Below the pieces are notes generated by a model. That model saw nothing but the letters and a program-made list of their open reading frames with translations, was not told where the DNA came from and ran no database searches. Made by a program: the position numbers and the translations under genes. From contig CAYRKT010000002.1 in assembly GCA_964425005.1 (NCBI GenBank), forward strand, positions 1 to 58,766: DNA of 58,766 bases. The letters run 5' to 3'. Source of the DNA: an uncultured Synergistia bacterium. GTDB taxonomy: Bacteria; Synergistota; Synergistia; CAYRKT01. Of the stretch, positions 15,707-58,766 are shown in pieces (within the stretch, counting starts at the first letter, position 1; each line of letters begins with the position of its first letter).

Positions 15707-16050
15707 GGGGCGGAAGCCATCCGTAAGCCGGGTTCTGTCGAGGACAGCCATCCATCTGGGGCGCGAGTCGCCTCGCGCCTCCTGCGGCCAGACCCGGGGA
15801 TCAGCGGGCCACCTCATCTCCCCCTATTCGGCCTTGCTCCGGGTGGGGCTTGCCAAGCGCACCGGTCGCCCGATGCCTGGTGAGCTCTTACCTCACCTTT
15901 TCACCCTTGCCAGGGACCCCTGGCGGTCTCTTTTCTGTGGCGCTATCCCGGGGTCGCCCCCGCCGGGCGTTACCCGGCACCCTGCCCTGTGGAGCCCGGA
16001 CTTTCCTCTGCCCGCGCAGCGGCAGCGGCTGTCTGGATCGCTTCCGCCCC
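15707..16050 (-). ncRNA. rnpB: RNase P RNA (bacterial type A)
   Basis: GAGGAAAGUCCGGGC, GCCACAGAAA, GGUGAAA, GGUAAGAGC, GAGCAAG, ACAGAACCCGGCUUA; 5' GGGGCGGAAGCGAUCC pairs with 3' GGAUGGCUUCCGCCCC (P1). Confidence 0.97.
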
Positions 16051-32647: not shown

Positions 32648-32723
32648 TGGCTCCCCGGGCAGGACTCGAACCTGCAACCTAGTGGTTAACAGCCACCCGC
32701 TCTGCCGGTTGAGCTACCGGGGA
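32648..32723 (-). tRNA. tRNA-Asn (GTT)
   Basis: Cloverleaf, anticodon arm GGTGG-CTGTTAA-CCACT, CCA encoded, U1-A72. Confidence 0.97.
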
Positions 32724-32762
32724 ACCAGCGACGCCCAACTCGTCAACAACGCTTTTATCGTG

Positions 32763-32837
32763 TGGAGGCGGCACCCGGAATCGAACCGGGGAATAAGGGA
32801 TTTGCAGTCCCCTGCCTTACCACTTGGCTATGCCGCC
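32763..32837 (-). tRNA. tRNA-Cys (GCA)
   Basis: GGGGA-CTGCAAA-TCCCT arm, CCA encoded. Confidence 0.97.
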
Positions 32838-32852
32838 TAACCTCCAAAAGAA

Positions 32853-32927
32853 TGGAGCGGAAGACGGGATTTGAACCCGCGGCCCCCACCTTGGCAAGGT
32901 GGTGCTCTACCCCTGAGCTACTTCCGC
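32853..32927 (-). tRNA. tRNA-Gly (GCC)
   Basis: CCACC-TTGCCAA-GGTGG arm, CCA encoded. Confidence 0.97.
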
Positions 32928-32945
32928 TCACCCCTAGAACCTTTA

Positions 32946-33021
<76 letters not shown>

Positions 33022-33035
33022 TTACCCTCTTTTTA

Positions 33036-33113
33036 TGGCGGGGCTGACGGGACTTGAACCCGCGGCCTCTGACGTGACAGGCCAGCGCTCTGACCGTGCT
33101 GAGCTACAGCCCC
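33036..33113 (-). tRNA. tRNA-Asp (GTC)
   Basis: CTGGC-CTGTCAC-GTCAG arm, CCA encoded. Confidence 0.96.
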
Positions 33114-33126
33114 GCGATCTCTGCGT

Positions 33127-33201
33127 TGGTGGGCAGAACAGGACTCGAACCTGTGACCCCCTGCTTGTAAGGCAGGTGCTCTCCCTCTGAGCTATCCGCC
33201 C
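33127..33201 (-). tRNA. tRNA-Val (TAC)
   Basis: CCTGC-CTTACAA-GCAGG arm, CCA encoded. Confidence 0.97.
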
Positions 33202-42120: not shown

Positions 42121-43426
42121 GGGGATACTCCCCCGTGAAGCAGGCCGTGCAGACCTGAGAGCAACCCAGGGCCTCGAGGAGCCCCTCCACGCTCAGATAG
42201 GCCACCCTGTCGGCCCCCACGACGGAGGCTATCTCCCCAGGGCTCATCGAGGAGGCCAAGAGTTCCCTGCCCCTGGCGGTGTCTATGCCGTAGTAGCACG
42301 GACACCTCACCGGGGGGGAGTGGATGGCCACCGAGACCTCACGGGCCCCCGCCTCCCGGAGCATGGAAACTATGGTGCCCATGGTGGTGCCCCTCACTAT
42401 GGAGTCGTCCACCACTATCACCGATCTGCCCCTCACCACGTCCTCTATGGGCAAAAGCTTCCTCCTGACCGCCTCCTTCCTCCCGGAGGGCATGATGAAG
42501 CTCCTCCCCAGGTACCTGTTCCTCATCAGGCCCAGGTCCAGCGGCAGGCCCGAGGCGAAGGAGAAGCCCAGCGCCCCCGAGATGCCGGAGTCCAGCACCG
42601 GCACCACCAGATCGCCCTCCAGAAGGCTTTCCCTGTACAGGCGCTCTCCCATCCTGAAGCGGGAGACGTGGACGTTGAGCCCCATGAAGGAGGAGTCTGG
42701 CCTGGCGAAGTATATGTACTCGAAGGAGCAGAACCTGCTGGGGAAGTCGGCGAACCTCCTCTCCGCCACGCCGTCCCTCGACAGGACCAGGGCCACCCCC
42801 CTCTCCAGCTCCCTTATGTCCGACGCCCCCACCACCTTCAGAGGTGCGTCCTCCGAGCAGACCAGGTACCCTTCGCCGAGCCTGGCCCAGAAGAGGGGCC
42901 TGAACCCGAAACCGTCCCTGGCGGCGAGGAGGAAGTCGTCGTGGAATAGCAATATGGAGTAAGCGCACCTGACCTGCGAGAGGGCCCACAGGCAGGACTC
43001 CACGGGGTCGTCGAAGGGTGCCATCGATATAAGGTGAAGGAATATCTCCGTGTCGGAATCGGTGAAGAAGACCGCCCCCTTCTCCAACAACCAATCCCTC
43101 CACCTGCGGGCCTCGGTAACGGTGCCGTTGTGGGCCACCGAGAAGGTCCCCTTCCTGGTGTCGGCCGTTATGGGCTGCACGTTCCTCGGGTTGCTCCCGC
43201 CCACGGTGGAGTACCTCACGTGACCTATGCCCCTTGAGCCGTCGATCGCGGCGGAGGGGGTTATCACCGAGTCCACCAGCCCCATGCCCTTGACGGACGC
43301 AAAGCCCTCCAGCACCACCCCAGCGCTCTCCTGCCCCCTGTGCTGAAGACCCTGCAAGAGGTCGTGGAGTATCCAGTAGGCGCCCTCCACGTTCCAGGCC
43401 GCCGCCACCCCGCAGAGCTCCCTCAA
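42107..43426 (-). CDS. purF: Amidophosphoribosyltransferase (Fe-S type)
   Basis: LCGV, LQHRGQESAG, GHVRYST, HNG, VVDDSIVRGTT, CSFE, CYYGID, CTAC. Confidence 0.97.
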   Translation of the reverse strand: MRELCGVAAAWNVEGAYWILHDLLQGLQHRGQESAGVVLEGFASVKGMGLVDSVITPSAAIDGSRGIGHVRYSTVGGSNPRNVQPITADTRKGTFSVAHNGTVTEARRWRDWLLEKGAVFFTDSDTEIFLHLISMAPFDDPVESCLWALSQVRCAYSILLFHDDFLLAARDGFGFRPLFWARLGEGYLVCSEDAPLKVVGASDIRELERGVALVLSRDGVAERRFADFPSRFCSFEYIYFARPDSSFMGLNVHVSRFRMGERLYRESLLEGDLVVPVLDSGISGALGFSFASGLPLDLGLMRNRYLGRSFIMPSGRKEAVRRKLLPIEDVVRGRSVIVVDDSIVRGTTMGTIVSMLREAGAREVSVAIHSPPVRCPCYYGIDTARGRELLASSMSPGEIASVVGADRVAYLSVEGLLEALGCSQVCTACFTGEYPHEGL

Positions 43427-45246
43427 GAGATCTCACCCACCTCTTCCCAGGGCAGATCCAACCCCTCAAGCTCCCCCTCGGGCGAGACGGCCAGGAAGGT
43501 CTGGTCGAAGCCCCTGGGGATCGGGCGAAGGACCTTCAGCGAAAGCCCCATGGACCTCAGGACGTCCCTCAAGGTGGCGCTGGGGAAGGAGCTCGGGGCC
43601 ATCAGGAAGCAACCCCTGTCCCTCAGAACCTCCATACCCCTCCAGACCCTCGCCTCCCTGGAGGGATCGAAGCCCTCGAAACCCACCCTGAAGACCTTGC
43701 CCCGCGGAGGCCTTCGCGACACCCCGTACACGTCCTCCACCGCGCCGACCGCCCCAACTATGAGCGTGGGGGGTATGGGCGTCCCCTCGAAGGTGTTGTA
43801 GAGGGAGGCGTTCCCGGACACCACCGGCAACCCGAGCTGCCTGCAGGCGTCTTCCAGACCCCTCATGGTGAGGGCAAGCCCAAGGGGGTCCACGTCGGGA
43901 TCGCCGTAGTTCAGCCCATCGGTGACCCCCACCGGTCTGGCCCCCACGGAGACGAGCTTCCTGCAGGCCTCGAAGAGGGCCACGAAGGAGGCCCAGTAGG
44001 GGGAGGACTCGGCCAAATCCTCCCTGCTGTGGACGCAAACGGCGACGCCCCTTCGAGAGCCCTTGACCCTCAAGACGGCGGGACCCAGCCCGGGGGGCAG
44101 GACCGTGTCGTTGCCCACCATGTAGTCGTAGCGGCTGAATATCGGCGCGGCGCTCTCGTCCTCGAAGCCGAAGGATACCCTGAGGGAGCTGAGGGGAGGG
44201 GGACTCACCTCCAGGGCCTCCTCCGCCGGCGCCTCGAGGAGGGCCCTAACCGGCACCTCCAGGAGCACCTCCCCTCCGAACACAGCCCTGTAGAGTCCGG
44301 ATCGATCGAGCCTGGCCACCACAGCGCCGTAGAGCATGTGCTCCCTCGCTATCTCCAGGACCCTCCCCGCCCTGTCGGGGGTGGTGACCACCGCCATCCT
44401 CTCCTGGCTCTCGCTCAGGAGGACCTCCCATCCCTCCATGTCGGGCTCCCTTAAGGGCACCGCGTCCAGGTGAACGGTGCCCCCAAGCCCCCCCTTGCCC
44501 ATCAGCTCGCAGGTGGCCATGAGCACTCCCCCCGCTCCCAGGTCCTGCGCCCCGTCCACCAGACCCTCCGACCGCATCTGGAGGAAGGCCTCGATGAGGA
44601 GCTTCTCCGCGAAGGGATCCCCCACCTGGATGTTGATCCTCTCGTGCTCGCCCGAGAGGTCCCTGGAGGCGAAGGAGGCCCCGTGTATGCCGTCCCTCCC
44701 CGTGAGCCCCCCGAACACCACTATTACCTGATCGGGCGAGGTAGCCCTCGAGGGGACCACCTCCGAACCCCTGCCGACCCCCAGCGCCATGGCGTTGACC
44801 AGCGGGTTGTGCCTGAAGCGCGAGGATACGCGGAGCTGACCGCCCACCGTGGGGACCCCTATGGCGTTGCCGTAGTCCCCGATGCCGGCCACGATCCCGT
44901 CTATCACCCTGTGCATGTGCAGGGAGTCCAGGATGGCCACCGGCCTCACGCCCATGGCCAACACGTCCCTTATTATGCCCCCCACCCCCGTGGCAGCGCC
45001 GTTGTAGGGCTCGACGGCGCTGGGGTGGTTGTGGCTCTCTATCTTGAAGACGCACACCAGCCCTTCGCCCAGCTCGACTACGCCCGCGTTGACCTCCCGG
45101 GAGACGCCGGGCAATCGAGATATGTAGGCCCTGGTGTGGGAGTAACCGCAGTGCTCGCTCCAGGCCACCTCGAAGGCGTGTCTCTCCACGGGGGATGGCT
45201 CTCTGCCGAGGACCTCGACCAGATGGGATAGATACCTCAAGGACAT
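43423..45246 (-). CDS. purL: FGAM synthase subunit PurL (very short, 607 aa)
   Basis: WSEHCGY, ESHNHPS, GAATGVGGIIRD, GRDGIHGA, QDLGAGG, LSESQERM, VSGNASLYN. Confidence 0.96.
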   Translation of the reverse strand: MSLRYLSHLVEVLGREPSPVERHAFEVAWSEHCGYSHTRAYISRLPGVSREVNAGVVELGEGLVCVFKIESHNHPSAVEPYNGAATGVGGIIRDVLAMGVRPVAILDSLHMHRVIDGIVAGIGDYGNAIGVPTVGGQLRVSSRFRHNPLVNAMALGVGRGSEVVPSRATSPDQVIVVFGGLTGRDGIHGASFASRDLSGEHERINIQVGDPFAEKLLIEAFLQMRSEGLVDGAQDLGAGGVLMATCELMGKGGLGGTVHLDAVPLREPDMEGWEVLLSESQERMAVVTTPDRAGRVLEIAREHMLYGAVVARLDRSGLYRAVFGGEVLLEVPVRALLEAPAEEALEVSPPPLSSLRVSFGFEDESAAPIFSRYDYMVGNDTVLPPGLGPAVLRVKGSRRGVAVCVHSREDLAESSPYWASFVALFEACRKLVSVGARPVGVTDGLNYGDPDVDPLGLALTMRGLEDACRQLGLPVVSGNASLYNTFEGTPIPPTLIVGAVGAVEDVYGVSRRPPRGKVFRVGFEGFDPSREARVWRGMEVLRDRGCFLMAPSSFPSATLRDVLRSMGLSLKVLRPIPRGFDQTFLAVSPEGELEGLDLPWEEVGEIS

Positions 45247-49740: not shown

Positions 49741-50322
49741 TCAGACGTGGATCGATCCCGAAGCCTTAACCCTCGCCTCCGAGGCCAGGCGCTCGATCTC
49801 CTCCAGGGAGCGGCGAAGGAGGGACAGGACCTCCGGGTGATCGTAGAGTTCGTCCCCCAACTCTTCCCTGATCTCGGAGGTGTCCAAGACGAACTCCTCC
49901 GAGTCGACGCGCCGAACGAACCTGAAGTCCACGTCCCTGTGGGCGCATATGCCCACCATCAGGGTGGAGACCAGATCCCCAAGGGGAGGCCTGTCCACGT
50001 GATCGAGGGAGAAACGAGCCCGCACCTCCGTCCCCTCGCCGGGCCTGGAGTTGAGTTCGAAGCTTCCGGCGCAGTGCTCCGCCGAGGCCCTGAGCAGAGG
50101 AAGGCCAAGGCCTACCCCTATCCTCTTCTTCCTCCCGGTGTAAAAGGGGTCCAAGGCCTTACAGGCCTCCTCCTCCGACATCCCGCAGCCGTCGTCCTTG
50201 ACGGCTATCTCCAGGTAGCCGGAACTGTGGTCCTCGAAGACCTCCACGGTTATGCGCTTAGCCCCAGCGGAGGCGCTGTTCTCTATGAGGTCCAGCACGT
50301 GCATGGACAGGTCCCTCATCAT
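49741..50322 (-). CDS. HATPase_c (histidine-kinase-like ATPase) of the hydrogenase-associated type
   Basis: MHVLDLIENS, DDGCGM, DPFYT, GLGLPL, RPPLGDL; no HisKA or receiver domain. Confidence 0.85.
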   Translation of the reverse strand: MMRDLSMHVLDLIENSASAGAKRITVEVFEDHSSGYLEIAVKDDGCGMSEEEACKALDPFYTGRKKRIGVGLGLPLLRASAEHCAGSFELNSRPGEGTEVRARFSLDHVDRPPLGDLVSTLMVGICAHRDVDFRFVRRVDSEEFVLDTSEIREELGDELYDHPEVLSLLRRSLEEIERLASEARVKASGSIHV

Positions 50323-50344
50323 CAAGGCGGAGACCACCCCCGCT

Positions 50345-50698
50345 CTAGGACCTAAGCCCCCTTATCCCCATGGAGTAGAGCCTTCCCACCGCCTCGAAAG
50401 CGGGAAGCGGCGTCCTTATGAGGGTGAGCCCCCTCTCCCTGGCCTTCTCCACCACCGAGGGCTCCACAGAGGCGCCGTCGGCCACCACCAGCGCGGAGGC
50501 CTCCACCAGCAACGCCACAGCCACGGCGTTTATGTGGCTCTGCACGGTGACCCACAAGACGCCGGGAGCACCCCTCTTCATCACGTCGCTCATGAGGTCC
50601 GAGGCTATGCCGTAGGAGACCTCGACGGAGCCCTCTTCGCCACCGGCCAGGACCTCCCCCTCTAAGGCCCTCAACAACTCGGTCAGCTCGAGCTTCAA
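50345..50698 (-). CDS. DRTGG-domain protein
   Basis: SDLMSDV, WVTVQSHINAVAVA, AFEAVGRLY. Confidence 0.85.
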   Translation of the reverse strand: MKLELTELLRALEGEVLAGGEEGSVEVSYGIASDLMSDVMKRGAPGVLWVTVQSHINAVAVALLVEASALVVADGASVEPSVVEKARERGLTLIRTPLPAFEAVGRLYSMGIRGLRS

Positions 50699-50716
50699 AC
50701 CGACACCCCCATGGAC

Positions 50717-52039
50717 CTACTTCTCGAGCGGAAGCTTTATCATCTCCAGTATCTCCCTCGTCAGATCGCCCACCCTGCGCCTCTGCTCGTAGACGCAGTC
50801 GGTGACCTTGCCCTGTCCTCTCACCACGTCCTCCGCCAGCGCCCTGCAGGAGGGCCTCCCGCAGAAGCCGCAGTTTATCCCGGGCAACCTGTCGTGGACT
50901 ATCTGGAGCTGGTGGAGCTTCTCCATCGACTCCCGGAGGTCCGAGGACAGAGGCAGCCTCGGCCTGGCCCGGATGGGAAACTCCAGCGAGGTGAAACCCC
51001 TGGCGTGGAGCTCCTCCAGGAGGGATAACCTCTCCTCGGAGGGATTCCAGTCGGGCACCCGGTGGGGCACGGTCTGGGAGGCTATGAAGCGAGACTCACC
51101 CGCGAGTATCCCCCCCACGCACCCCTTGTCGCAGACCCTGCCCTCCACGTAGTCGACCCCTCTGAGCTTGCCCAGCTCCACCTCCTCCACCACCTCCATC
51201 ACGTTCCTCATCCCCGAGACCACCACCGCCCTGAAGGGCTCCCCGTTGCCGAAGATCCTCCAGAACATGGAGAGGTGGTCGGACTCACCCCCCAGCACCG
51301 CCCACCTGATCCACCGGGAGAAGTCGGAGGACGGGAGGCTGTCGCCGACGCTGGGCCTCTTGGCCAGGTTCACTATATCCCTGTAGACCCAGTTCATCCC
51401 CACCGCGTAAGACATGTGGCTGGCCCTTCTGCCCTCCGGATACTTGGCCATGCCGATCTTCGCCGGGCAGGGGGAGACGAAGACGAAGGGCTTCCCTCCC
51501 ACCCCCCTGGACTCCGAGAGGGCAGCGGCCACCTCTAGGGGATTCTCCACCGGAGTGAGCCTGGAGACCAACGAGGGATACTTGACCTGGACCAGCCTCA
51601 AGACGGCGGGACAGTAGACGGATATCATCGGCCTGGACTCCCTCGGAACGCTCAGGACGTGCTTCACCGTGGCGAAGGCCACCAGATCATAGGCTATCTC
51701 CATCTCCTCTATCAAGTCCTTGTAGCCCAGGGCGCCCATCAAGGAGGAGACCTCCCTGGGGTCCTGGAGGTGGGCGAACTGGGTGTACATCACGGGATCG
51801 CAGATCAGCACTCTGTCGGAGGTGCTGTTCCTCAGTATCTCCCACTCGTCCTCCTCCACCGCTATGAAGTCAGAACAAACCCTCTTGCACTCCCCGCAGT
51901 TTATGCACAGCTCGGGGATGATCTTCAAAAACCCGCTGTACCACCTCATGGCCTCGGTGGGACAGGCCTTTATGCAGTTTATCCCCTCCTTGCAGTACTT
52001 GCCCACAGGCCTAATCACGACACCGTGTCTGTCGGTCAA
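50717..52039 (-). CDS. [FeFe]-hydrogenase-like Fe-S protein (ferredoxin + degenerate H-domain + C-terminal FeS domain), likely sensory
   Basis: C..G..C...CP and CINCGEC...C; P1 SVYCPA, P2 SPCPAK, P3 EGRVCDKGCVGG; LPGINCGFCGRPSC...C. Confidence 0.8.
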   Translation of the reverse strand: MTDRHGVVIRPVGKYCKEGINCIKACPTEAMRWYSGFLKIIPELCINCGECKRVCSDFIAVEEDEWEILRNSTSDRVLICDPVMYTQFAHLQDPREVSSLMGALGYKDLIEEMEIAYDLVAFATVKHVLSVPRESRPMISVYCPAVLRLVQVKYPSLVSRLTPVENPLEVAAALSESRGVGGKPFVFVSPCPAKIGMAKYPEGRRASHMSYAVGMNWVYRDIVNLAKRPSVGDSLPSSDFSRWIRWAVLGGESDHLSMFWRIFGNGEPFRAVVVSGMRNVMEVVEEVELGKLRGVDYVEGRVCDKGCVGGILAGESRFIASQTVPHRVPDWNPSEERLSLLEELHARGFTSLEFPIRARPRLPLSSDLRESMEKLHQLQIVHDRLPGINCGFCGRPSCRALAEDVVRGQGKVTDCVYEQRRRVGDLTREILEMIKLPLEK

Positions 52040-52054
52040 AGCGACCTAACCCCC

Positions 52055-52498
52055 CTACCCCTCCATAATCCTGACCGAGGCCCAGAGCTTCGTCCCCCGG
52101 CCGACCTCGCTCTCGATGCGCATCTCGTCGGAGTTCTTCTTTATGTTGGGAAGGCCCATCCCCGCCCCGAACCCCAGCTCCCTTATGTGGTCGGGCGCCG
52201 TGGAGTACCCCTCCTTCATGGCCAGCTCTATGTCCTCTATGCCCGGGCCGTCGTCCTCAGCCAGTATAACTATCTCGTCAGGGTAGACCAAAGCCTTCAA
52301 GGTCCCTCCCCCCGCGTGGATCACCAGGTTCATCTCCGCCTCGTAGGCTATGACGGCAACCCGCCGGTATATCTCCGGCGAGAGGCCCAGCATCTTGAGG
52401 ACTTCCTTTATCTGGGTGGAGGCGAGTCCAGCGCCGACGAAATCCCCACCCTTGACGTCGAACTCCACGGAGTAGACCAGCTTCTTGGAGGAGGACAT
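52055..52498 (-). CDS. RsbT-like anti-sigma Ser/Thr kinase (HATPase_c)
   Basis: YEAEMNLVIHAGGG, DDGPGIEDIELAMKEGYST, GAGMGLPN. Confidence 0.9.
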   Translation of the reverse strand: MSSSKKLVYSVEFDVKGGDFVGAGLASTQIKEVLKMLGLSPEIYRRVAVIAYEAEMNLVIHAGGGTLKALVYPDEIVILAEDDGPGIEDIELAMKEGYSTAPDHIRELGFGAGMGLPNIKKNSDEMRIESEVGRGTKLWASVRIMEG

Positions 52499-52510
52499 GC
52501 CCTTTAAGAG

Positions 52511-52879
52511 CTAAAACACCCTATCCCTGCACACCAAGCAGGGCGAAAGCCCCTCGGCGTAGAGCCTTCCACACGCCTCGAACATGGTCATGGGCGTGAG
52601 GAGCAAGGGCACGCCCAGAGCGGAAGCCGACCTCACCACGTCCTCCGAGGGGACCTTACCCCTCACGAACAGGACGGCGGGCACGTCCAGCATGTGCACA
52701 GTCCTCATCAGCTGGATGTGCGTGAGGCCGGTTATCAACAGGGTTCCAGCGCAGGCGAAGGCCAGGATGTCGCTCAGCAGGTCACAGGCGTAGGCGTTGG
52801 GGACAGCTATGGAATCCAGCTTGTCCTCGCAACACAGCACCTTGGCCCCTACCAATTCCCTCACCGTAGAGAGCAACAA
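52511..52879 (-). CDS. DRTGG-domain protein
   Basis: CDLLSDIL, LITGL, FVRGK, MFEACGRLY. Confidence 0.87.
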   Translation of the reverse strand: MLLSTVRELVGAKVLCCEDKLDSIAVPNAYACDLLSDILAFACAGTLLITGLTHIQLMRTVHMLDVPAVLFVRGKVPSEDVVRSASALGVPLLLTPMTMFEACGRLYAEGLSPCLVCRDRVF

Positions 52880-52952
52880 AGGAGACCCTCCCCCCCTTGT
52901 CCTGATGACCGAAGGAGCCCTTCAACTTCCGAACCACCGGGCGCCAAGCCCT

Positions 52953-52980
52953 ATTTTAAAGATTGTGAAAGATAAATCAA
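52953..52980 (-). promoter_or_regulatory. Promoter of the DRTGG/kinase/hydrogenase-like operon, with a Rex-like half-site
   Basis: TTGATT-16 bp-TAAAAT; TTGTGAA at 52963-52969 lies in the spacer. Confidence 0.55.
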
Positions 52981-53030
52981 GCCCGATTTGGCCCGGGGGC
53001 CCAAAACGCCTCGAGCTGGGCCTCACCCCC

Positions 53031-53059
53031 TTGACTGGGCCTCTCGGGGCGGATAAAAT
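53031..53059 (+). promoter_or_regulatory. sigma70-type promoter of the T-box/lysW operon
   Basis: TTGACT-17 bp-TAAAAT. Confidence 0.85.
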
Positions 53060-53084
53060 CCTCTCACGAAAGCCGAACAAGCCC

Positions 53085-53337
53085 GGCGATGACCGAGGGA
53101 GGGTCTTTCCCAGAAGCCCAACAGAGAGGGGGCTCCACCGGCTGAGAGGGCCCCTGGGGTGGGGGTTAGATCCAAAGCCCTCGCGAGCCTCGGCCGAAAG
53201 GGTTCTCCCGGAGTAGGCCGCGGGGGGCTCCCGTTAAAGGGCCGACGAGGGGAAGAGGGGGGACGCAAGGGTTTCTTCTCTTCCACTAGGGTGGTACCGC
53301 GGGCCGAAAGCTCGTCCCTAGAGGGACGAGCTTTTTT
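53085..53337 (+). ncRNA. T-box riboswitch (transcriptional), probable Lys (AAA) specifier
   Basis: K-turn GGC-GAU-GA/GA-GCC, AG bulge CAGAGAG, GCUGAG distal loop, stem II with GAA/AGUA S-turn, CCGUUA box, stem III, AGGGUGGUACCGCG (53288-53301), terminator. Confidence 0.92.
53310..53337 (+). terminator. T-box attenuator terminator
   Basis: GCTCGTCCC-TAGA-GGGACGAGC-TTTTTT; its 5' strand is shared with the antiterminator. Confidence 0.9.
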
Positions 53338-53378
53338 GTTTAGGTCGACCCAGCGCGAGGAGGTGTTCTGAGGTGGAG

Positions 53379-53555
53379 ATGACGAGGATCGAGGCGATGT
53401 GCGAGGTGTGTGGAGGGGAACTGGAGATCGGGTCCGGCGTGGAGCTGGGCGAGATAGTGGTATGCTCCGACTGCGGGACGGAGCTGGAGGTGGTCTCGTT
53501 GGATCCTGTGGTCCTGGAGAGGGCCCCCGAGGTCCAGGAGGACTGGGGGGAGTAA
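53379..53555 (+). CDS. lysW: Amino-group carrier protein LysW
   Basis: CEVC...CSDC zinc ribbon, GEIV.C..CG.ELEV, acidic, C-terminal EDWGE. Confidence 0.96.
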   Translation: MTRIEAMCEVCGGELEIGSGVELGEIVVCSDCGTELEVVSLDPVVLERAPEVQEDWGE

Positions 53556-53561
53556 GGGGGC

Positions 53562-54410
53562 ATGAGGCCCTCGCTGGTGGTCCTAAACGACGTCTTCTCC
53601 TTCGAGACCAGGCTGCTCCTGGAGGCAGCCGACTCGGTCGGCGTGAGCTGCAGGACCGTGGAGGTCTCCTCGGGCCTCTGGTTCGACCAGCTGGACCCCG
53701 CGCTTCCCTGTTGGAACCTCATCTCGTCGCCGGTGGCCAGGGCTGCGGTGTCCTCCTCCCTTCGCGGGCGAGGGCTTAAGCCCTTGAACCTCGCGTTAGC
53801 CGAAGGGAGCGCCGTCGACGTGGCCTCTACCCTGCACGACCTAAGCCTCGAGGGCCTCACCAGCGAGGTCTTCCTGCTCTTCCGCGAGCCCCAGGTCAAG
53901 GAGCTCATCGCCCAGGGGAGGTTGAGGTACCCCTTCTGGATAAGAGGGAGCAGGCGAGGGAGGGGGGACATCAGGACCCTGGTCAGGAGCGAGGCCGCCC
54001 TGGAGGCGGTGCTGGAGCACCGGGAACACCTGGTCGACGAGCCCTTCGTGGTCCAGGTCCACCCCGAGGCGGACGCCATGGCCAGGCTGACCATCATAGG
54101 GAGCAGGAGGTTCTGGAGCCAGGGGGCGATATCCCCCAGCGGCAGACATGCTCTAGCGCCGTGCGACGAGACGGAAGAGCTCTCCGACATCGCAGCGAGG
54201 TTGTGCCGATACCTGCGGGACAGGTTCGGGACCCCACTCTGGGCCCAGTTCGACCTGCTCATCTCGCGAGGAGGAAGGGGATTTTGGGTCTTCGACCTCT
54301 CGGATCTGCCCGAGCTGATGCCCCTAAAGGATAGGAGGGCTGAGCTGGTGGAGGCTCTGGCCTCGGTCGTCGAGGAGGTGATGGCCGATGGAGGAGGGCA
54401 AACCCTCTAA
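53562..54410 (+). CDS. Highly diverged LysX/RimK-like ATP-grasp protein (probable pseudo-enzyme)
   Basis: Position right after lysW; E.RLLLEAA..G, EAVLEHRE, FDL..S..G, PEL resemble LysX; the DK, KP..GSWG, NT.RG and EVN motifs are absent. Confidence 0.7.
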   Translation: MRPSLVVLNDVFSFETRLLLEAADSVGVSCRTVEVSSGLWFDQLDPALPCWNLISSPVARAAVSSSLRGRGLKPLNLALAEGSAVDVASTLHDLSLEGLTSEVFLLFREPQVKELIAQGRLRYPFWIRGSRRGRGDIRTLVRSEAALEAVLEHREHLVDEPFVVQVHPEADAMARLTIIGSRRFWSQGAISPSGRHALAPCDETEELSDIAARLCRYLRDRFGTPLWAQFDLLISRGGRGFWVFDLSDLPELMPLKDRRAELVEALASVVEEVMADGGGQTL

Positions 54411-54551: not shown

Positions 54552-55295
54552 TTGAACGAGGTGACCTTGGAGGGCGAGATAGTCGAGATAGGACCGGATC
54601 GCATAAGGGTCAGGGGCGTGGACATAGAGGAGCTCATAGAGGGCTGGAGCTACCCGGAGGTCTTTTGGTTTCTGCTCACCGGCAGGAGGCTGAGCTCGAG
54701 GGAGAGGAGGATGCTCGAGGCCATACTGGTGGCCATGTGCGACCACGGCCCAACGCCTCCCAGCACCCAGGCGGCCAGGCTCGTGGCCTCCACCGGCTCC
54801 CCCATGCACGCGGCCCTGGCGGCAGGGCTCTTGGGCTTCGGAGATCACCACGCCGGGGCCATAGAGCTGGCCATGAGGGTGCTCCAGGAGGCGGTGCGAT
54901 CTGCGGAGCTCGGCAGAGACGAGCTCAAAGGGACGGCGGAGAGGCTCGTGGAGGACTTCCTGGACAGAGGGGAAAGGGTGCCGGGCTTCGGACACAGGTA
55001 CCACAGGAGGGATCCCAGACCCCCTGCCCTGGTCAGGTTGGCCGAGAGGCTCTCCATGGTGGGACCCCACCTGAGGCTCGCCCTGGAGATGGAGGAGGTC
55101 CTCCTGTCCAGGAAGGGCATAAGGATGAACATCGACGGGGCGAGCGGGGCGATCCTGAGCGACATGGGGCTCTCGTGGCGCGTAGGCAGAGGGGTCTTCG
55201 CCCTGGGAAGGATGTCGGGCCTGATAGCGGAGGTTATGGTGGAGATATCGTGCTACAAGCCGTTCAGGAAGTTCCACGAGATAAAGGCCAGTTGA
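54552..55295 (+). CDS. Citrate synthase-fold protein (short citryl-CoA lyase / archaeal citrate synthase-like)
   Basis: 247 aa; DHGPTPPSTQAARL, GDHHAGAIE, PGFGH, DPR, MNIDG (His-His-Asp triad intact); TTG after SD GGAGGTG. Confidence 0.9.
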   Translation: MNEVTLEGEIVEIGPDRIRVRGVDIEELIEGWSYPEVFWFLLTGRRLSSRERRMLEAILVAMCDHGPTPPSTQAARLVASTGSPMHAALAAGLLGFGDHHAGAIELAMRVLQEAVRSAELGRDELKGTAERLVEDFLDRGERVPGFGHRYHRRDPRPPALVRLAERLSMVGPHLRLALEMEEVLLSRKGIRMNIDGASGAILSDMGLSWRVGRGVFALGRMSGLIAEVMVEISCYKPFRKFHEIKAS

Positions 55296-55315
55296 ACGAG
55301 GAGGTGCCAGGGAAC

Positions 55316-56344
55316 TTGAAGGTGGCTGTATTCGGAGCGTCCGGGTTCGTGGGAGGAGAGCTCTTGAGGCTCATAGCCCTCCATCCGCAGATGGAGCTCT
55401 CGGCGGCGTCCTCCAACACCTTCGCCGGGGAGATGGTCTGGACGAGGCACCCGCACCTCAGGCCCGTATACCCCTCCTTGAAGTTCTGCGCGCCCGAGGA
55501 GGCCATTGGAGCGGACTTCGACCTGGCCTTCCTGGCCCTGGAGCACGGGAGGTCCGCCGAGGTCGCGGGGAAGATCCACGACAGCGGCAGGCTCGTGGTG
55601 GATCTGAGCGCAGACCTCAGGCTCAAGGACCCCGAGGCCTACAGGAGGTGGTACGGCAGGAATCACCCAAGGCCGGACCTCCTCTCCAGGGCCGTCTACG
55701 GGCTTCCAGAGCTGCACCGCGAGGAGCTCAAGGGGGCGACTTTGGCCTCCGGGGTGGGCTGCAACGCCACCGCCGTGAACCTGGCGCTCAAGCCCCTCAA
55801 GGGCCTCCTTCGGGAGGTCGTGGCCGACGTGAGGGCTGGCTCTTCCGAGGGAGGAGCTCGTCCCAGCGAGGGCTCCCATCACCCCATAAGGAGCAGGGCC
55901 CTCAGGCTCTACTCCGTGGGGAAGCACAGGCACATGGCCGAGGTGTGCCAGGAGATGGAGCTCCCAGAGGAGGCTATATCCTTCTCCGTCACGGCGGTGG
56001 AGCTGGTGAGGGGGGTTCAGGCGGTGGTCAGGTGCAGGCTGAGCGAGCGCCTGACCGAGAAGGAGCTGTGGGGGCTCTTCAGGAACGCCTACAAGGGAAG
56101 CCCCTTCGTCTCCCTGTGCCCCGCCAACCCACCCCACCTACGACTGCCGGACCCCAGGTGGGTCACGGGCAGCAACCACGCCATGATAGGCTTCGTCCAG
56201 GAGGGGGAAGATCGGGTGGTGGTGGTCTCGGTGCTGGACAACCTCGTCAAGGGCTCCGCCGGGACGGCCGTGGCCTGCGCCAACCTGATGGTGGGCCTGC
56301 CGGAGGAGACCGGCCTGAACCAAAGCCCCATATTCCCTGTATGA
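55316..56344 (+). CDS. lysY: [LysW]-aminoadipyl/glutamyl-phosphate reductase (LysY/ArgC family)
   Basis: GASGFVGGELLRL, DLSADLR, AVYGLPE, GCNAT, GSSEGG, DNLVKGSAG; TTG 55316 after SD GAGGAGGTG. Confidence 0.92.
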   Translation: MKVAVFGASGFVGGELLRLIALHPQMELSAASSNTFAGEMVWTRHPHLRPVYPSLKFCAPEEAIGADFDLAFLALEHGRSAEVAGKIHDSGRLVVDLSADLRLKDPEAYRRWYGRNHPRPDLLSRAVYGLPELHREELKGATLASGVGCNATAVNLALKPLKGLLREVVADVRAGSSEGGARPSEGSHHPIRSRALRLYSVGKHRHMAEVCQEMELPEEAISFSVTAVELVRGVQAVVRCRLSERLTEKELWGLFRNAYKGSPFVSLCPANPPHLRLPDPRWVTGSNHAMIGFVQEGEDRVVVVSVLDNLVKGSAGTAVACANLMVGLPEETGLNQSPIFPV

Positions 56345-56352
56345 AGGAGGCG

Positions 56353-57168
56353 ATGGGGGTGCTGGTGGTCAAGATAGGCGGGGGAAGGGGGAACAGGCTG
56401 GACGAGCTCTGCAAGGAGGTCAAAGCCCTCTGGGAAGAGGGCGAGAGGCTGGTGCTGGTCCACGGGGTGAGCGACGCCATGGACGCCCGCTCGGCGGAGC
56501 TCGGCCTGGAGCCCAGGTACCTCGTGAGCCCCAGCGGGTTCAGGAGCAGGTTCGTCGGGGAGAGGGAGAGGGACGTCTACCTGGGCGTTTGCCTCGAGGT
56601 CGGCGCGAGGATCTGCTCCACCCTGCACGCCATGGGGGTCAGGGCCGTCGCCCTCTGGGGAGGTAGCGGAGCCCTCGCCGAGGGAGAGAGGAAGGAGGCG
56701 CTCCGCTACGTGGAGAACGGCAAGGTCAAGGTGGCCAAGGGCAACTGGAGCGGGGTGGTGAGGTCCGTGAACGCCAGGGTGATCGAGGTCCTGCTGGAGG
56801 GGGGCTTTCTGCCGGTGGTCTCCCCCGTGGCCGTGACGCCGGAGGGATTGCCCCTCAACGTGGACGGCGACAGGATGGCAGCGGCCATCGCCTCGGCCCT
56901 GAGGGCCGAGGCCCTGGTGATCCTCTCCAACGTCCCCGGGCTCCTGGAGCGCCTGGAAGACCCAGGGAGCCTGGTCAGGAGGATACCCTTCGAGGACCTG
57001 GAGGACTACGACGGCCTCGCCAAGGGGAACATGAAGAGAAAGCTATTGGCCGCGAGGGAGGCCTTGGAGGGCGGGGTGGAGAAGGTGATCATCTCGGACA
57101 GCAGGGTGGAAAGACCGATAGGGTCCGCCCTGGCGGGAGGTGGGACCTGGATATGTCGAGCTTTCTAG
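56353..57168 (+). CDS. lysZ: [LysW]-aminoadipate/glutamate kinase (LysZ/ArgB family)
   Basis: VVKIGG, LVHG, SPSGFRSR, NVDGDRMAA, LSNVPGLL, GNMKRKL. Confidence 0.92.
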   Translation: MGVLVVKIGGGRGNRLDELCKEVKALWEEGERLVLVHGVSDAMDARSAELGLEPRYLVSPSGFRSRFVGERERDVYLGVCLEVGARICSTLHAMGVRAVALWGGSGALAEGERKEALRYVENGKVKVAKGNWSGVVRSVNARVIEVLLEGGFLPVVSPVAVTPEGLPLNVDGDRMAAAIASALRAEALVILSNVPGLLERLEDPGSLVRRIPFEDLEDYDGLAKGNMKRKLLAAREALEGGVEKVIISDSRVERPIGSALAGGGTWICRAF

Positions 57169-58325
57169 ATATAGAATCGCGCTTCGGACCCGGCATAACC
57201 GCCACCAGGGAGGTCTGCCTGGTGAGGGGAGAGGGGTCGTGGGCCTTCGACGAGTCCGGGAGAAGGTACCTGGACTTCAGCATGGCCCACGGATCGGTGG
57301 CCCTAGGACACGCCCATCCAGCCGTGGCATCGGCGATGAAGAGGGCGCTCGAGGAGGGGATCTTGAACTGCGGGATGGGCTTCTCCTCCCCCTTCAGGGC
57401 CAGGTTGCTCGAGAGGCTTTGTCAGGGTCTGGGAGGCAAGTTCCGGGGCTTTCTCGCCAACTCGGGCGCGGAGGCGATAGAGACCGCCATAAAGCTGTGC
57501 GCCCTAAAGAGGCCCGGCAGGAAGAGGTTCGTGGCCCTCAGGAGGTCCTTCCACGGCAGGACCCTGGGGGCTTCGTCCCTTACCTTCAACCCCAACTACA
57601 AGAGGGGGTTGGAGCACCTCCTGCTCGAGGTGGACTTCATCAGACCCATCGAGGAGGACCTGGACAGGGTCGACGAGGGGGTGGCCGCGGTCTTCGTAGA
57701 GCCGGTCCAGGGGGAGGGCGGCGTATATCCCCTGCCCCCCGACTTCCTCAGGGCCCTCAGGTCCCGCTGCGACGAGGTGGGTTCCCTGCTGGTGGCCGAC
57801 GAGGTCCAGTGCGGCTTCTTCAGGTGCGGTTCTCTGGCCCTGTCCGTCGAGGACGGCATATCCCCCCACGTGGTCTGCCTGGCCAAGGGGATGGCGAACG
57901 GCATCCCCATAGGGGCGTGCCTGTGGAGGGAGGAGCTAGGCCCCCTACCCCCCAAGGTCCACGGGACCACCTACGGCGGAAACCCGCTGGTCTGCGCCGT
58001 GGCCCTCGCCGTACTGGACGTAGTCGAGGAGGAGCGCCTGGGCGAAAGGGCCACCAGGATGGGGCGAGGGCTCATCTCCCTGATCGAGGAGGCCAGGCAC
58101 CCCCGCGTCAAGGAGGTAAGGGGGAGAGGACTCCTGGTTGGGGTGGAGCTCACAGGGCCAGTCGCGGAGGAGGTGGTCAGATCCCTCCAGGGGAAGGGAG
58201 TCCTGGCGCTCACCACCTCCAACAGGTCGGTGGTTAGGTTCATGCCGTCCCTCCTGGTCTCCGAGGAGGAGCTCGAGCTCGCCGCCTCCGCCCTGCTCAG
58301 CGCCCTCGACGAGTTGGAGCGATGA
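57153..58325 (+). CDS. lysJ: [LysW]-aminoadipate-semialdehyde transaminase (LysJ/ArgD, class III PLP)
   Basis: YLDF, LGHAHP, NSGAEAIE, SFHGRT, EPVQGEGG, DEVQ, LAKG, HGTTYGGNP. Confidence 0.92.
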   Translation: MSSFLDIESRFGPGITATREVCLVRGEGSWAFDESGRRYLDFSMAHGSVALGHAHPAVASAMKRALEEGILNCGMGFSSPFRARLLERLCQGLGGKFRGFLANSGAEAIETAIKLCALKRPGRKRFVALRRSFHGRTLGASSLTFNPNYKRGLEHLLLEVDFIRPIEEDLDRVDEGVAAVFVEPVQGEGGVYPLPPDFLRALRSRCDEVGSLLVADEVQCGFFRCGSLALSVEDGISPHVVCLAKGMANGIPIGACLWREELGPLPPKVHGTTYGGNPLVCAVALAVLDVVEEERLGERATRMGRGLISLIEEARHPRVKEVRGRGLLVGVELTGPVAEEVVRSLQGKGVLALTTSNRSVVRFMPSLLVSEEELELAASALLSALDELER

Positions 58326-58766
58326 GGCCCACAGGCCCCTTCGAAGCAGAGGCCGTAGAGCTCCTGAAGGCCCTGGTGGAGACGGAAAGCCCCACCGGCC
58401 GCGAGGACGAGGCCGTAGGGCTCTTCGTCGAGGCGGCCAGGTCCATGGGGCTTGAGGCCGGCAGGGACGAGGCGGGAAACGGCGTGGCCGCAAAGGGCGA
58501 AGGAGGAAGGCGCATCTACCTGGTAGGCCACATAGACACGGTCCCGGGGAGCATACCCGTGAGGATCGAGGGAGGGGAGCTCTGGGGGAGGGGAAGCGTG
58601 GACGCCAAGGGGGCGCTGGCGGCCATGCTGGTGGCCCTCGCGAGGGCCAGCCTGAGGCCAGGCCTGGAGGTGCGCCTGTTCGCCTGCGTCGACGAGGAGG
58701 GAAGGAGCAGGGGGGCAAGGCACCTCCTGGGGTCCGCGCCGGAGCCAGAGGGGGTCGTGGTGGGAG
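58322..58766 (+). CDS. lysK: [LysW]-lysine/ornithine hydrolase LysK (M20 family), truncated by window end
   Basis: ATG 58322 overlaps the lysJ stop; SPTGRE, GHIDTVPG, LWGRGSVDAKG, DEEG. Not in the ORF track because it has no stop in the window. Confidence 0.9.
   Translation, partial: MRPTGPFEAEAVELLKALVETESPTGREDEAVGLFVEAARSMGLEAGRDEAGNGVAAKGEGGRRIYLVGHIDTVPGSIPVRIEGGELWGRGSVDAKGALAAMLVALARASLRPGLEVRLFACVDEEGRSRGARHLLGSAPEPEGVVVG

Follow-up and report, generated by a model that had tools for sequence, protein, structure and literature searches.

The window, as we call the whole 58,766-nucleotide stretch of DNA analysed here (contig CAYRKT010000002.1 of an uncultured Synergistia bacterium), carries towards its end a promoter, a T-box leader and an intrinsic terminator, followed by the genes of a LysW-type biosynthetic operon (Table 1). 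The operon opens with lysW, which encodes a zinc-ribbon carrier protein ending in an acidic EDWGE C-terminus that is invariant in our alignments, and runs through an open reading frame at the lysX position (ORF2), a citryl-CoA-lyase-like gene, lysY, lysZ and lysJ to lysK. In the related locus L001 the operon continues with a full-length [LysW]-lysine hydrolase gene (lysK; NF003367, 363.2 bits against a cut-off of 363), two subunit pairs of the homoaconitase/IPM-isomerase family and one gene of the homoisocitrate/isopropylmalate dehydrogenase family, the models for which cannot separate Lys from Leu enzymes.

Table 1. Predicted elements of the leader and genes of the operon (positions in the window).
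Feature	Position	Strand	Detail or basis
Sigma-70-type promoter	53031..53059	+	-35 TTGACT 53031-36; 17-nt spacer; -10 TAAAAT 53054-59
Stem I (tRNA anticodon- and elbow-binding domain)	53085..53189	+	Rfam alignment; RNAalifold and pair counts, 19 leaders
K-turn, 5' strand	53085..53092	+	GGC 53085-87 (C-stem), GAU bulge 53088-90, GA
Helix below specifier loop, 5' strand	53094..53099	+	CGAGGG; pairs with 53178-53183
Distal Stem I platform	53122..53147	+	AG bulge CAGAGAG 53122-28; distal loop CACCGGCUGAGA 53136-47
Specifier codon AAA (Lys)	53174..53176	+	AAA/AAG at homologous position in 27/27 loci
Purine 3' of specifier	53177..53177	+	G; G or A in every leader
Helix below specifier loop, 3' strand	53178..53183	+	CCCUCG; pairs with 53094-53099
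K-turn, 3' strand	53185..53189	+	GA, then GCC 53187-89
Stem II with GAAA/AGUA S-turn	53191..53220	+	Rfam alignment, RNAalifold, covariation
Stem IIA/B pseudoknot and F-box	53221..53243	+	Per-leader complementarity
Stem III	53250..53285	+	Rfam alignment
Antiterminator	53286..53321	+	Fold -15.3 kcal/mol; 7-nt T-box bulge UGGUACC 53292-98
Intrinsic terminator	53306..53341	+	13-bp stem 53306-53335 and U-run
lysW, amino-group carrier protein	53373..53555	+	60 aa; TIGR01206 76.5 bits (cut-off 53.2); PF21344
ORF2, lysX position, very divergent LysX-like protein	53562..54410	+	hhalign to LysX profile: probability 88.9%, E 2.4e-6
Citryl-CoA-lyase-like gene	54552..55295	+	NF004866 289 bits (cut-off 245); closest solved structure 6hxp_A, E 1e-48
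lysY/argC-type reductase	55307..56344	+	TIGR01850 338.7 bits; start codon approximate
lysZ, [LysW]-aminoadipate kinase	56398..57168	+	NF010659 281 bits (cut-off 223); start codon approximate
lysJ-type aminotransferase	57153..58325	+	argD/LysJ family matches, all below curated cut-offs; family-level assignment
lysK, [LysW]-lysine hydrolase, N-terminal part	58323..58766	+	tblastn 97% identity to L001 copy; runs off window

Judging from its gene content, the operon is of the lysine type rather than the ornithine type. The preliminary description of this DNA, made from the sequence alone, had placed a LysW operon under T-box control, and the presence of lysW downstream (TIGR01206), the lysine-type kinase and the conserved gene context all agree with this. 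ORF2 has no Pfam or NCBIfam match and is linked to LysX only by the hhalign comparison of Table 1, a PDB sequence search with it gave chance hits only, and just two relatives were found among 5.8 billion proteins; its AlphaFold (AF2) model is poor (pLDDT 43), and several positions that are invariant in three aligned Synergist LysX proteins appear by eye to be replaced in it, so that ORF2 may not be a working LysX. The LysX-family ligases of the Chloroflexi and Synergist operons score 344-345 bits in Chloroflexi and 288 bits in L083, which pass the cut-off of 275.6, and 274.5 bits in L012 and 255.2 bits in L099, just below it. In addition, no LeuA-type homocitrate synthase was seen in the window lineage, the citryl-CoA-lyase-like gene being present instead. 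With ORF2 doubtful and no LeuA-type enzyme seen, the pathway can be assigned less completely in the window than in Synergistales, the T-box operons of which read lysW-X-Y-Z-J-K, and in Chloroflexi, the T-box operons of which begin with homocitrate synthase.

A T-box leader below the Rfam gathering score

The leader aligns with the entire Rfam covariance model of the T-box family (RF00230, model positions 1-219 of 219, at 53080-53322 on the + strand) with a score of 65.7 bits (E = 4.9e-14 in a local scan and 4.8e-12 over both strands of the 58.8-kb window). Because this is below the gathering score of 93 bits, default annotation misses the leader: a default Rfam scan of the window did not report the T-box, which was matched only with permissive filters. 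The low score accompanies a reduced specifier loop and long GC-rich insertions in a leader of 67% GC, which is a co-occurrence and not a demonstrated cause. Scans of the leader and of the window matched no other Rfam family to the leader; the lysine riboswitch (RF00168) gave no match at E up to 10 in the leader region (52850-53450) or, at E up to 0.01, anywhere in the window, and the leader contains no run of Lys codons. Single-sequence minimum-free-energy folding of Stem I alone or of the whole leader yielded non-T-box folds that were no better than those of shuffles, and Stem I was not recovered. Such folding is uninformative for an RNA as GC-rich as this one, and comparative analysis was therefore used.

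The leader is a genuine T-box riboswitch. Every T-box element listed in the preliminary description was found in the sequence at the coordinates given, and the span named there (53031-53337) is accurate, reaching from the -35 hexamer into the U-run of the terminator. The promoter matches 10 of 12 hexamer positions, two such sites being found where 0.1 were expected in shuffles, and both hexamers are kept in L001. The terminator fold (-21.7 kcal/mol; z = -6.2, reached by 0/200 shuffles) is stronger than that of the antiterminator, and the two folds are mutually exclusive, as they have 53310-53318 in common. UGGU, found at 53292-95 and in the leaders of all 27 loci considered below, is predicted from the general T-box mechanism to bind the 3'-terminal ACCA of a tRNA having A73; it had been read earlier as fitting an A73 discriminator, as would be expected for bacterial tRNA-Lys. 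No tRNA-Lys gene was found in the window or in the 26 related T-box loci.

Conserved structure and the predicted Lys specifier

The arrangement of a T-box with lysW is recurrent in several lineages and not unique to the genome of the window. In addition to the window, 26 loci have a T-box before lysW or before a lysW-containing lysine operon; they come from Synergistales, two unplaced lineages, Chloroflexi and metagenomes, and the resulting 27 loci fall into ~11 sequence groups, with scores on RF00230 of 50-78 bits, all below 93. The relatives of ORF2, used as a route to orthologous loci, led to L002, which lacks a leader, and to L001, which is 98% identical. Three further candidates (L061, L113 and L116) were rejected as T-boxes, since a palindromic hairpin was all that made them fit the core pattern. 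PurL, compared in order to place the window lineage, is only 54-58% identical to Thermotogota and unnamed sequences. The lysW genes that follow argH in Anaerolineae loci have no T-box, and the Synergist lysW loci without a T-box have no lysine riboswitch at threshold.

Covariation, which had been named beforehand as a check of the fold, was scored for 44 pairs in 19 non-identical homologous leaders and, together with RNAalifold, supports it: 92.6% of cells were paired, whereas shuffles gave 77.4% and sliding the partners by 1-3 columns gave no more than 53.6%, and compensatory changes occurred in 30 of the 44 pairs, the observed value being reached by 0/500 shuffles. The helices of Stem I are 82.5-100% paired, most of their pairs with compensatory changes. 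At its base, the K-turn is formed by GGC and GCC and by the sheared pairs G53091.A53186 and A53092.G53185; its GCGAUGA recurs in all leaders, either unchanged or with a conservative substitution (GCGAGGA, GCCAUGA), its 3' GAGC is invariant in the alignment, and the C-stem (helix 1) covaries. The helix GAGGG 53095-99 : CCCUC 53178-82 of the preliminary description is real and is lengthened to 6 bp by C53094-G53183. All five of its aligned pairs (columns 12-16 / 104-108) show compensatory changes, with GC, CG, UA and AU pairs represented, and its sequence differs by group (CGAGGG, GCGAG, ACAGG, CCGGG, UCAGG, GCGGA, CCGAG, UGCAGG, GAGG).

AAA or AAG followed by a purine stands immediately 5' of this K-turn-proximal helix in each of the 27 loci, at the position that TBDB uses for calling specifiers (PMC7778990). 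Loss of AAA/AAG in orthologous leaders, named in advance as evidence against a Lys specifier, was thus seen in none of them. The base 5' of the codon varies among C, U and G, and the neighbouring reading frames are therefore unconserved. The specifier loop itself is unusually small, a single A (53100) facing AAAG below a predicted GGGUC:GAUCC helix in the window and 1-2 nt facing 4-6 nt in the Synergist-type leaders, and the AGUA/GAA S-turn, which as a rule assists in presenting the codon, is absent from both, while it is present in the Chloroflexi Lys T-boxes. This S-turn is common among T-boxes but is not known to be universal, and is treated here as typical rather than defining. In view of this reduced loop without its usual S-turn, the term "canonical" in the preliminary description is an overstatement.

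The columns of the two distal motifs are nearly invariant in the 19 leaders and align to the Rfam consensus AGAGA / GGUGNRA; in known T-boxes such motifs make up a platform for the tRNA elbow, and they are predicted to do so here. Stem II comprises helices 7 and 8, and all six pairs of helix 7 show compensatory changes. In the pseudoknot, CGG 53221-23 pairs with CCG 53231-33 (IIA) and GGCUC 53226-30 with GGGCC 53239-43 (IIB), the F-box being CCGUUA 53231-36. Because counting columns of the MAFFT alignment gave weaker, only moderate support here (76% paired), a per-sequence complementarity test was substituted; it found 5-10 nt of loop-to-downstream complementarity in each leader, with a sequence that differs between lineages. 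A hairpin of variable length occupies the Stem III position in all leaders. The antiterminator core GGGUGGUACCGCG is invariant in the 19 leaders, and helix 10 covaries.

Taken with the lysine-type operon, the codon and its purine in all 27 loci, the covarying helix and a natural substitution in L001 (C53093G, which turns a C.C mismatch of the Lys register into a G-C pair) agree with the Lys specificity first proposed for this leader. We are highly confident that it is a T-box riboswitch of class I, acting by transcription attenuation and specific to tRNA-Lys, with tRNA binding, charge sensing and read-through ascribed to it from the known mechanism of T-boxes. Starting near 53066, the transcript would fold Stem I, bent by its K-turn, so that the specifier could pair with the UUU anticodon of tRNA-Lys and the distal AGAGA / GGCUGAGA platform could stack on the tRNA elbow. 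If that tRNA is uncharged, its free ACCA end would pair with UGGU and stabilise the weaker antiterminator, and RNA polymerase would read through into lysW, the lysX-like ORF2, the citryl-CoA-lyase-like gene, lysY, lysZ, lysJ, lysK and further genes. If it is lysylated, the amino acid would block this contact, the terminator would form, and transcription would stop before lysW. A fall in lysyl-tRNA charging would thus induce lysine synthesis by the LysW/alpha-aminoadipate pathway.

Alternative readings

A T-box-like sequence that is in decay or arose by chance, and that regulates nothing, would explain the sub-threshold score, 65.7 bits against 93, and would fit a Stem I that folds singly no better than shuffles. 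We hold this to be highly improbable, given an E-value of 4.8e-12 over the whole window, a full set of intact modules, a strong terminator, and the same architecture with compensatory changes before lysine operons in ~11 sequence groups, every one of which scores below threshold as well. A functional T-box specific for Arg is the reading against which the preliminary description had itself cautioned: CCGAGG 53093-98 would pair with CCUCGG 53188-93 and expose CGA 53184-86, making the operon a LysW (ArgW) module for ornithine/arginine. The complementarity is indeed present in the window, the models for the reductase and the aminotransferase do not tell Lys from Arg, lysW directly follows argH in the Anaerolineae loci, and LysW homologues serve arginine synthesis in some organisms. 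The Arg helix would, however, remove the 3' strand of the K-turn and occupy the 5' strand of Stem II, two elements that show both conservation and covariation, and its first pair is broken by the very substitution at C53093 that repairs the Lys helix in L001. CGA or an equivalent helix occurs in none of the 26 related leaders (0/26), in which the invariant G-GAGC of the K-turn takes the corresponding place. Moreover, the kinase scores above the cut-off of the [LysW]-aminoadipate kinase equivalog but does not reach those of the models for bifunctional aminoadipate/glutamate kinases, genes of the homoaconitase and homoisocitrate-dehydrogenase families lie in the same operon in L001, and the arg-linked lysW loci are those without a T-box. 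The Arg reading is almost certainly wrong.

The specifier would be CAA (Gln) in a purely positional Rfam alignment, which treats GCC as an insertion, places CAA followed by A at the consensus codon and aligns eight loop positions as G-A-U-C-C-A-A-A; in L012 and in the L101 group, one more pair (U.G or U-A) might also be added to the helix, leaving CAA followed by G. We give Gln next to no chance, because the supposedly inserted GCC pairs with GGG 53097-99, because the variable base before AAA would make the codon CAA, UAA or GAA, of which UAA is a stop codon with no matching tRNA, and because the gene context is that of lysine. A leader that responds to tRNA-Lys but also to uncharged tRNA-Asn, as a member of the AAN codon box, would let the operon answer a broader starvation. 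The lysK T-box of B. cereus, the only Lys T-box studied experimentally, is partly induced by depletion of tRNA-Asn (PMC2916919), for which reason strict specificity should not be assumed, and a reduced loop without an S-turn might discriminate the third position less well. We nevertheless consider such promiscuity unlikely, as the third codon position is a purine in 27/27 loci, arguing for selection of Lys over Asn. Going beyond the Lys-specific T-box that we favour, the window-type and Synergist-type leaders might form a structural subclass, reading the codon from a minimal internal loop of 1-2 nt opposite 4-6 nt without the Stem I S-turn, and in the deep, barely sampled lineage of the window such a leader might at the same time control an alpha-aminoadipate pathway of variant form, where a stand-alone citryl-CoA-lyase-type enzyme takes over from the LeuA-type homocitrate synthase and LysX is replaced by, or has degenerated into, ORF2. 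We offer this combination tentatively, as something rather doubtful.

Comparison with known systems and implications

The mechanism is an ordinary one, that of the known T-box family, and not a new one. Like the RF00230 reference members (B. subtilis tyrS and glyQS), the window leader lies upstream of amino-acid genes and has the K-turn, a codon with a 3' purine, the distal AG bulge and loop, the Stem II S-turn, the IIA/B pseudoknot, Stem III, and an antiterminator with a 7-nt UGGN bulge in competition with an intrinsic terminator; it differs from them in its sub-threshold score, its reduced specifier loop without an S-turn and its 67% GC. Such a loop lends itself to testing how much of Stem I decoding needs. 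At the Rfam gathering threshold, annotation misses the regulon, as shown for the window and as the scores of the 27 loci indicate, and its members would be picked up by a model built for them or by a lower cut-off used together with gene context. Independent evidence that these LysW clusters make lysine and not ornithine also comes from the Lys codon, a question that protein models alone often cannot decide.

The lysine riboswitch (L-box, RF00168) is found on genes of the DAP pathway and of transporters and senses free lysine. It resembles the window leader as a cis-acting leader over lysine supply genes, and differs in responding to free lysine rather than to tRNA charging. The lysine (AAA) cluster of Thermus thermophilus is reportedly under leader-peptide attenuation, to our knowledge the only regulation known for the LysW/alpha-aminoadipate pathway. 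Both systems act on the same pathway by premature termination in a 5' leader and ultimately report the availability of lysyl-tRNA, but in Thermus the sensor is a ribosome that stalls at the Lys codons of a leader peptide, whereas the window RNA, with no Lys-codon run, would bind the tRNA directly. That tRNA-sensing control of a LysW pathway had not been described was already suggested in the preliminary description; our literature search likewise found no paper linking a T-box to the LysW carrier pathway. PMC9413887, considered as evidence for T-boxes in Synergistetes, deals with the HisR repressor and was discarded. The RegPrecise table contains no Lys T-box in Chloroflexi, nor, among the rows listed, in Deinococcus-Thermus, including Thermus. 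According to our results, four bacterial groups or more (Synergistales, Chloroflexi and two unplaced lineages) have the pathway under a predicted control that senses tRNA-Lys directly.

Few T-box specificities are as rare as Lys (PMC7778990). The known cases are lysK of B. cereus/B. thuringiensis and lysS of C. beijerinckii and S. thermophilum (PMC2916919), and a Lys permease of B. halodurans (PMC2494555). Going by their published descriptions, they share with the window the Lys specifier and the transcription-attenuation design, but they control a second LysRS copy or a transporter, while the T-box of the window controls a LysW/alpha-aminoadipate biosynthetic operon; a biosynthetic target is thereby added to a very short list that held only spare LysRS genes and a permease. 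Close parallels are the T-boxes of the Chloroflexi loci L040 and L066, upstream of hcs-hacA-hacB-lysW-lysX-lysK, which have a Lys specifier (AAG followed by G), UGGU and the same pathway in common with the window. Unlike the window leader, they have a canonical S-turn specifier loop, they score higher (61-78 bits), and they regulate the pathway from its homocitrate synthase end, whereas the T-box of the window lies directly at lysW.

The T-box element and its operon

Upstream of lysW lies a genuine T-box of the transcriptional type, which carries a Lys specifier and precedes a LysW-type lysine operon; we infer the regulatory function of the T-box, and the proposed mechanism is the established T-box one. 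Run with permissive filters, the Rfam T-box model RF00230 matched 53080-53322 (plus strand) from its first position to its last (1-219) at 65.7 bits (E 4.9e-14 in the local scan and 4.8e-12 over the whole window). The match upholds the T-box identity proposed in the preliminary description, though it does not reach the curated gathering threshold of 93. Because of this shortfall, a scan of the window at default Rfam settings reported RNase P RNA and six tRNAs only, and not the T-box. The C-stem, bulge, sheared pairs, specifier helix, AAA with its purine, and UGGU named earlier were all found at their positions when the sequence was read. The terminator fold (-21.7 kcal/mol, z = -6.2) is more stable than the antiterminator fold (-15.3 kcal/mol), in which the 7-nt bulge UGGUACC is unpaired and with which it shares 53310-53318. 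By default, therefore, the leader is "off," which fits a T-box.

Features of the window, with strand and basis of assignment
Feature	Position	Strand	Basis
RNase P RNA	15709-16044	-	Rfam scan
Six-tRNA cluster	32648-33201	-	Rfam scan
Cluster divergent from T-box promoter	49741-52879	-	Pfam labels from L001 gene list
Promoter TTGACT-17-TAAAAT	53031-53059	+	sequence motif
C-stem	GGC 53085-53087 / GCC 53187-53189	+	read from sequence
GAU bulge	53088-53090	+	read from sequence
Sheared pairs	G53091.A53186, A53092.G53185	+	read from sequence
Helix framing specifier	C53094-G53099 with C53178-G53183	+	read from sequence
AAA, then G53177	53174-53176	+	read from sequence
UGGU	53292-53295	+	read from sequence
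Terminator, 13 bp with U-run	53306-53341	+	sequence/hairpin
lysW	53373-53555	+	TIGR01206, 76.5 bits
ORF2 (282 aa, lysX position)	53562-54410	+	no family match
Citryl-CoA-lyase-like gene, stand-alone	54552-55295	+	NF004866, 289 bits; closest solved structure 6hxp_A, E 1e-48
argC/lysY-type reductase	downstream of citryl-CoA-lyase-like gene	+	protein family match
Kinase	downstream of lysY-type gene	+	passes [LysW]-aminoadipate kinase equivalog, 281 bits (cut-off 223)
lysJ-type aminotransferase	downstream of kinase	+	protein family match
M20 peptidase, start only	last gene of window	+	protein family match

The continuation of the operon was read in the contig of L001 (14762-20849), a 98%-identical relative, and comprises a [LysW]-lysine hydrolase (lysK; 363.2 bits, cut-off 363), followed by an HD-domain ORF, two consecutive large/small subunit pairs of the homoaconitase/isopropylmalate-isomerase family, and a gene of the homoisocitrate/isopropylmalate-dehydrogenase family. 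This content fits the alpha-aminoadipate route to lysine rather than an ornithine module and, together with the lysW and kinase matches, it bears out the claim that a LysW operon lies under the T-box.

The citryl-CoA-lyase-like gene sits between ORF2 and lysY within the operon; by tblastn of 82 loci it was found only in L001 and L002, and it is absent from the gene lists of L163 and L164, two T-box loci. In the window lineage the operon showed no homocitrate synthase of the LeuA type, and we speculate that the lyase-like protein might supply the homocitrate-forming step. ORF2 has no Pfam or NCBIfam match, has two relatives only among 5.8 billion proteins, and is linked to LysX only by comparing profiles (probability 88.9%). 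Inspection by eye suggests that ORF2 has other residues at several of the positions that Synergist LysX proteins conserve, and ORF2 may be a ligase that has degenerated or been put to another use. The LysX of L163 and L164 is also atypical, with just a weak pre-ATP-grasp match.

The window (64% GC) belongs to a deep, barely sampled lineage: its PurL (43423-45246, minus strand) has no relative above 58% identity outside its own lineage, the named best matches being Thermotogota, and its LysY is closest to Synergistales (52-56%). A dcw cell-division cluster, V-type ATPase subunits, and purine genes are also carried. The cluster divergent from the T-box promoter encodes two HATPase_c proteins, a DRTGG-domain protein, a DRTGG-like ORF, and a [FeFe]-hydrogenase-like large-subunit protein with an FeS domain, and looks like a hydrogenase-type sensory module.

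Related leaders and the specifier

Homologous leaders were gathered because single-sequence folding of the GC-rich leader was uninformative. A genome collection scanned with a LysW alignment gave 80 loci, among which five Synergistales/Acetomicrobium loci have a T-box core 75-120 nt upstream of lysW; the LysW of these loci, used on a metagenome collection, yielded 16 further T-box leaders. Two further T-box loci, L163 and L164 in a 48%-GC genome, were reached through the closest outside LysW (69% identity). In total, 27 loci, window included, combine a Lys T-box with the LysW pathway. The arrangement is common, not universal: six Synergist lysW loci lack a T-box, and no Rfam family matches them. 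Pattern searches for the T-box core also picked up a perfect palindrome with a T-run behind it, GGAGGTACCGCG...CGCGGTACCTCC, in L061 (~2070-2115) and, ~258 nt upstream of lysW, in L113 and L116; it was rejected as a T-box and looks like an ordinary terminator belonging to the gene upstream. In five metagenome leaders (L101, L124, L125, L126, and L147) the K-turn-like motif GCGAUGA occurs a second time, ~52 nt upstream of Stem I (in L101, one copy is at ~368 and one at 421).

In an alignment of 19 non-identical leaders, RNAalifold recovered the K-turn stem, the helices below and above the specifier, the distal hairpin, Stem II, and the antiterminator. Pair counts on the explicit structure gave 92.6% paired cells; column shuffles gave 77.4%, and sliding partners by 1-3 columns gave no more than 53.6%. 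Compensatory changes occur in 30 of 44 pairs (5/5 in the helix framing the specifier), and none of 500 shuffles reached the observed values. The covariation sought across orthologous leaders is thus present. Most leaders also have 5-10 nt of Stem IIA/B pseudoknot complementarity of lineage-specific sequence (GGCUC:GGGCC, GGAUCC:GGAUCC, GAGGC:GCCUC, GGACAG:CUGUCC), with a weaker column-wise count (76% paired in an unrefined alignment); the best scripted match was no better than shuffles in L012, L092, and L121, and GACCC:GGGUC was found by eye in L012.

Specifier loop (3' side) and adjoining helix strand in representative leaders
Leader	Loop	Helix
Window	CC-AAA-G	CCCUCG
L007	UC-AAA-G	CUCGC
L091	CG-AAA-G	CUCGC
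L024	CC-AAA-A	CCCGG
L077	CU-AAA-A	CCUGA
L012	CC-AAG-G	CCUGU
L094	CC-AAG-G	UCCGC
L126	CC-AAG-A	CUCG
L163	AU-AAA-G	CCUGCA

In every leader, AAA or AAG plus a purine forms the four nucleotides directly 5' of the K-turn-proximal helix, in agreement with the Lys specifier first proposed. The preceding base varies (C, U, or G); this variation and the synonymous AAA/AAG switch single out the Lys frame, and the neighboring frames (CAA, UAA, GAA) were rejected as not conserved across leaders. TBDB calls specifiers at this position, and Lys is among the rarest T-box specificities, with AAA the preferred codon (PMC7778990). G53099-C53178 is one extra base pair relative to most relatives; were it open, the window frame would be AAG followed by C, Lys all the same. 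UGGU is found in all leaders and predicts an A73 discriminator.

The preliminary description had also raised a CCGAGG/CCUCGG pairing, which would expose CGA and make the T-box Arg-specific with an ornithine/arginine role. We reject it: the pairing occurs in no related leader and would abolish the K-turn and the Stem II 5' strand, both conserved and covarying, and in L001 the change of C53093 to G breaks this helix, while the C.C mismatch of the Lys register becomes a G-C pair. Gene context points the same way. In three Anaerolineae loci (L004, 2280-3873; L023, 8417-10153; L033, 8240-10159) lysW lies immediately downstream of argH (argininosuccinate lyase; 572-603 bits), pointing to an ArgW-like role for the carrier tied to arginine, and no T-box or leader RNA was found at argH-lysW. 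The T-box Synergist clusters are instead self-standing lysW-lysX-lysY-lysZ-lysJ-lysK; their LysX scores 255-288 bits (cut-off 275.6, passed by L083 alone), and the one Synergist kinase scanned, that of L083, passes the [LysW]-aminoadipate kinase equivalog.

Stem I styles and comparison with known systems

In the window, GGGUC (53101-53105) is able to pair with GAUCC (53169-53173), with a lone A (53100) then facing AAAG (53174-53177) in an internal loop. The specifier loop of the Synergist-type and L163 leaders is likewise 1-2 nt opposite 4-6 nt (alignment columns 17-18 and 98-103). Whereas the textbook T-box has an AGUA/GAA S-turn in Stem I, none of the window-type, Synergist-type, or L163 leaders has one there; the Stem II S-turn is kept. 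This reduced loop adds interest to the group and, with GC-rich insertions, is probably the cause of the low RF00230 scores. Every leader tested, those of the window, L007, L024, L077, L163, L040, and L066 among them, aligned over the full model but scored 50-78 bits, short of 93. The whole Lys/LysW group thus lies systematically under the annotation threshold, and a default Rfam scan would miss its remaining members as it missed that of the window.

Published Lys T-boxes precede lysK/lysS in four species (PMC2916919) and a Lys permease (PMC2494555). The RegPrecise survey describes T-boxes as restricted to Firmicutes, Actinobacteria, Chloroflexi, Deinococcus-Thermus, and Geobacter; it lists no Lys T-box for its five genomes of Chloroflexi, nor in the Deinococcus-Thermus entries examined (PMC3766115, Table S2). 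A full-text literature search turned up no paper that connects T-boxes with the LysW carrier pathway, in agreement with the earlier view of such control as undescribed; T-box databases such as TBDB, or older surveys, may already list some of these leaders. The one match to both "T-box" and "LysW" was discarded, lysW there being the name of an unrelated transporter. A Lys-biosynthetic T-box target is rare and apparently undescribed.

Two Chloroflexi loci, L040 and L066, have T-boxes ~3 kb upstream of lysW (78 and 61 bits) that keep the canonical AGUA...GAA S-turn, with GAA-A-AAG-G and then CCUC on the 3' side of the specifier loop, that is, Lys, and with UGGU. Homocitrate synthase (454-458 bits, cut-off 413.55), both homoaconitase subunits, lysW, lysX, and lysK ([LysW]-lysine hydrolase) are encoded downstream of the T-box (L040, 5039-10351; L066, 6752-12106). 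With the Synergist-type and window-type leaders, tRNA-Lys control of the alpha-aminoadipate/LysW pathway is therefore predicted in at least four groups and two Stem I styles. The gene order in L040 and L066 is that of the Thermus lysine cluster, which is controlled by leader-peptide attenuation, whereas the Chloroflexi loci have in its place a T-box with predicted tRNA sensing.
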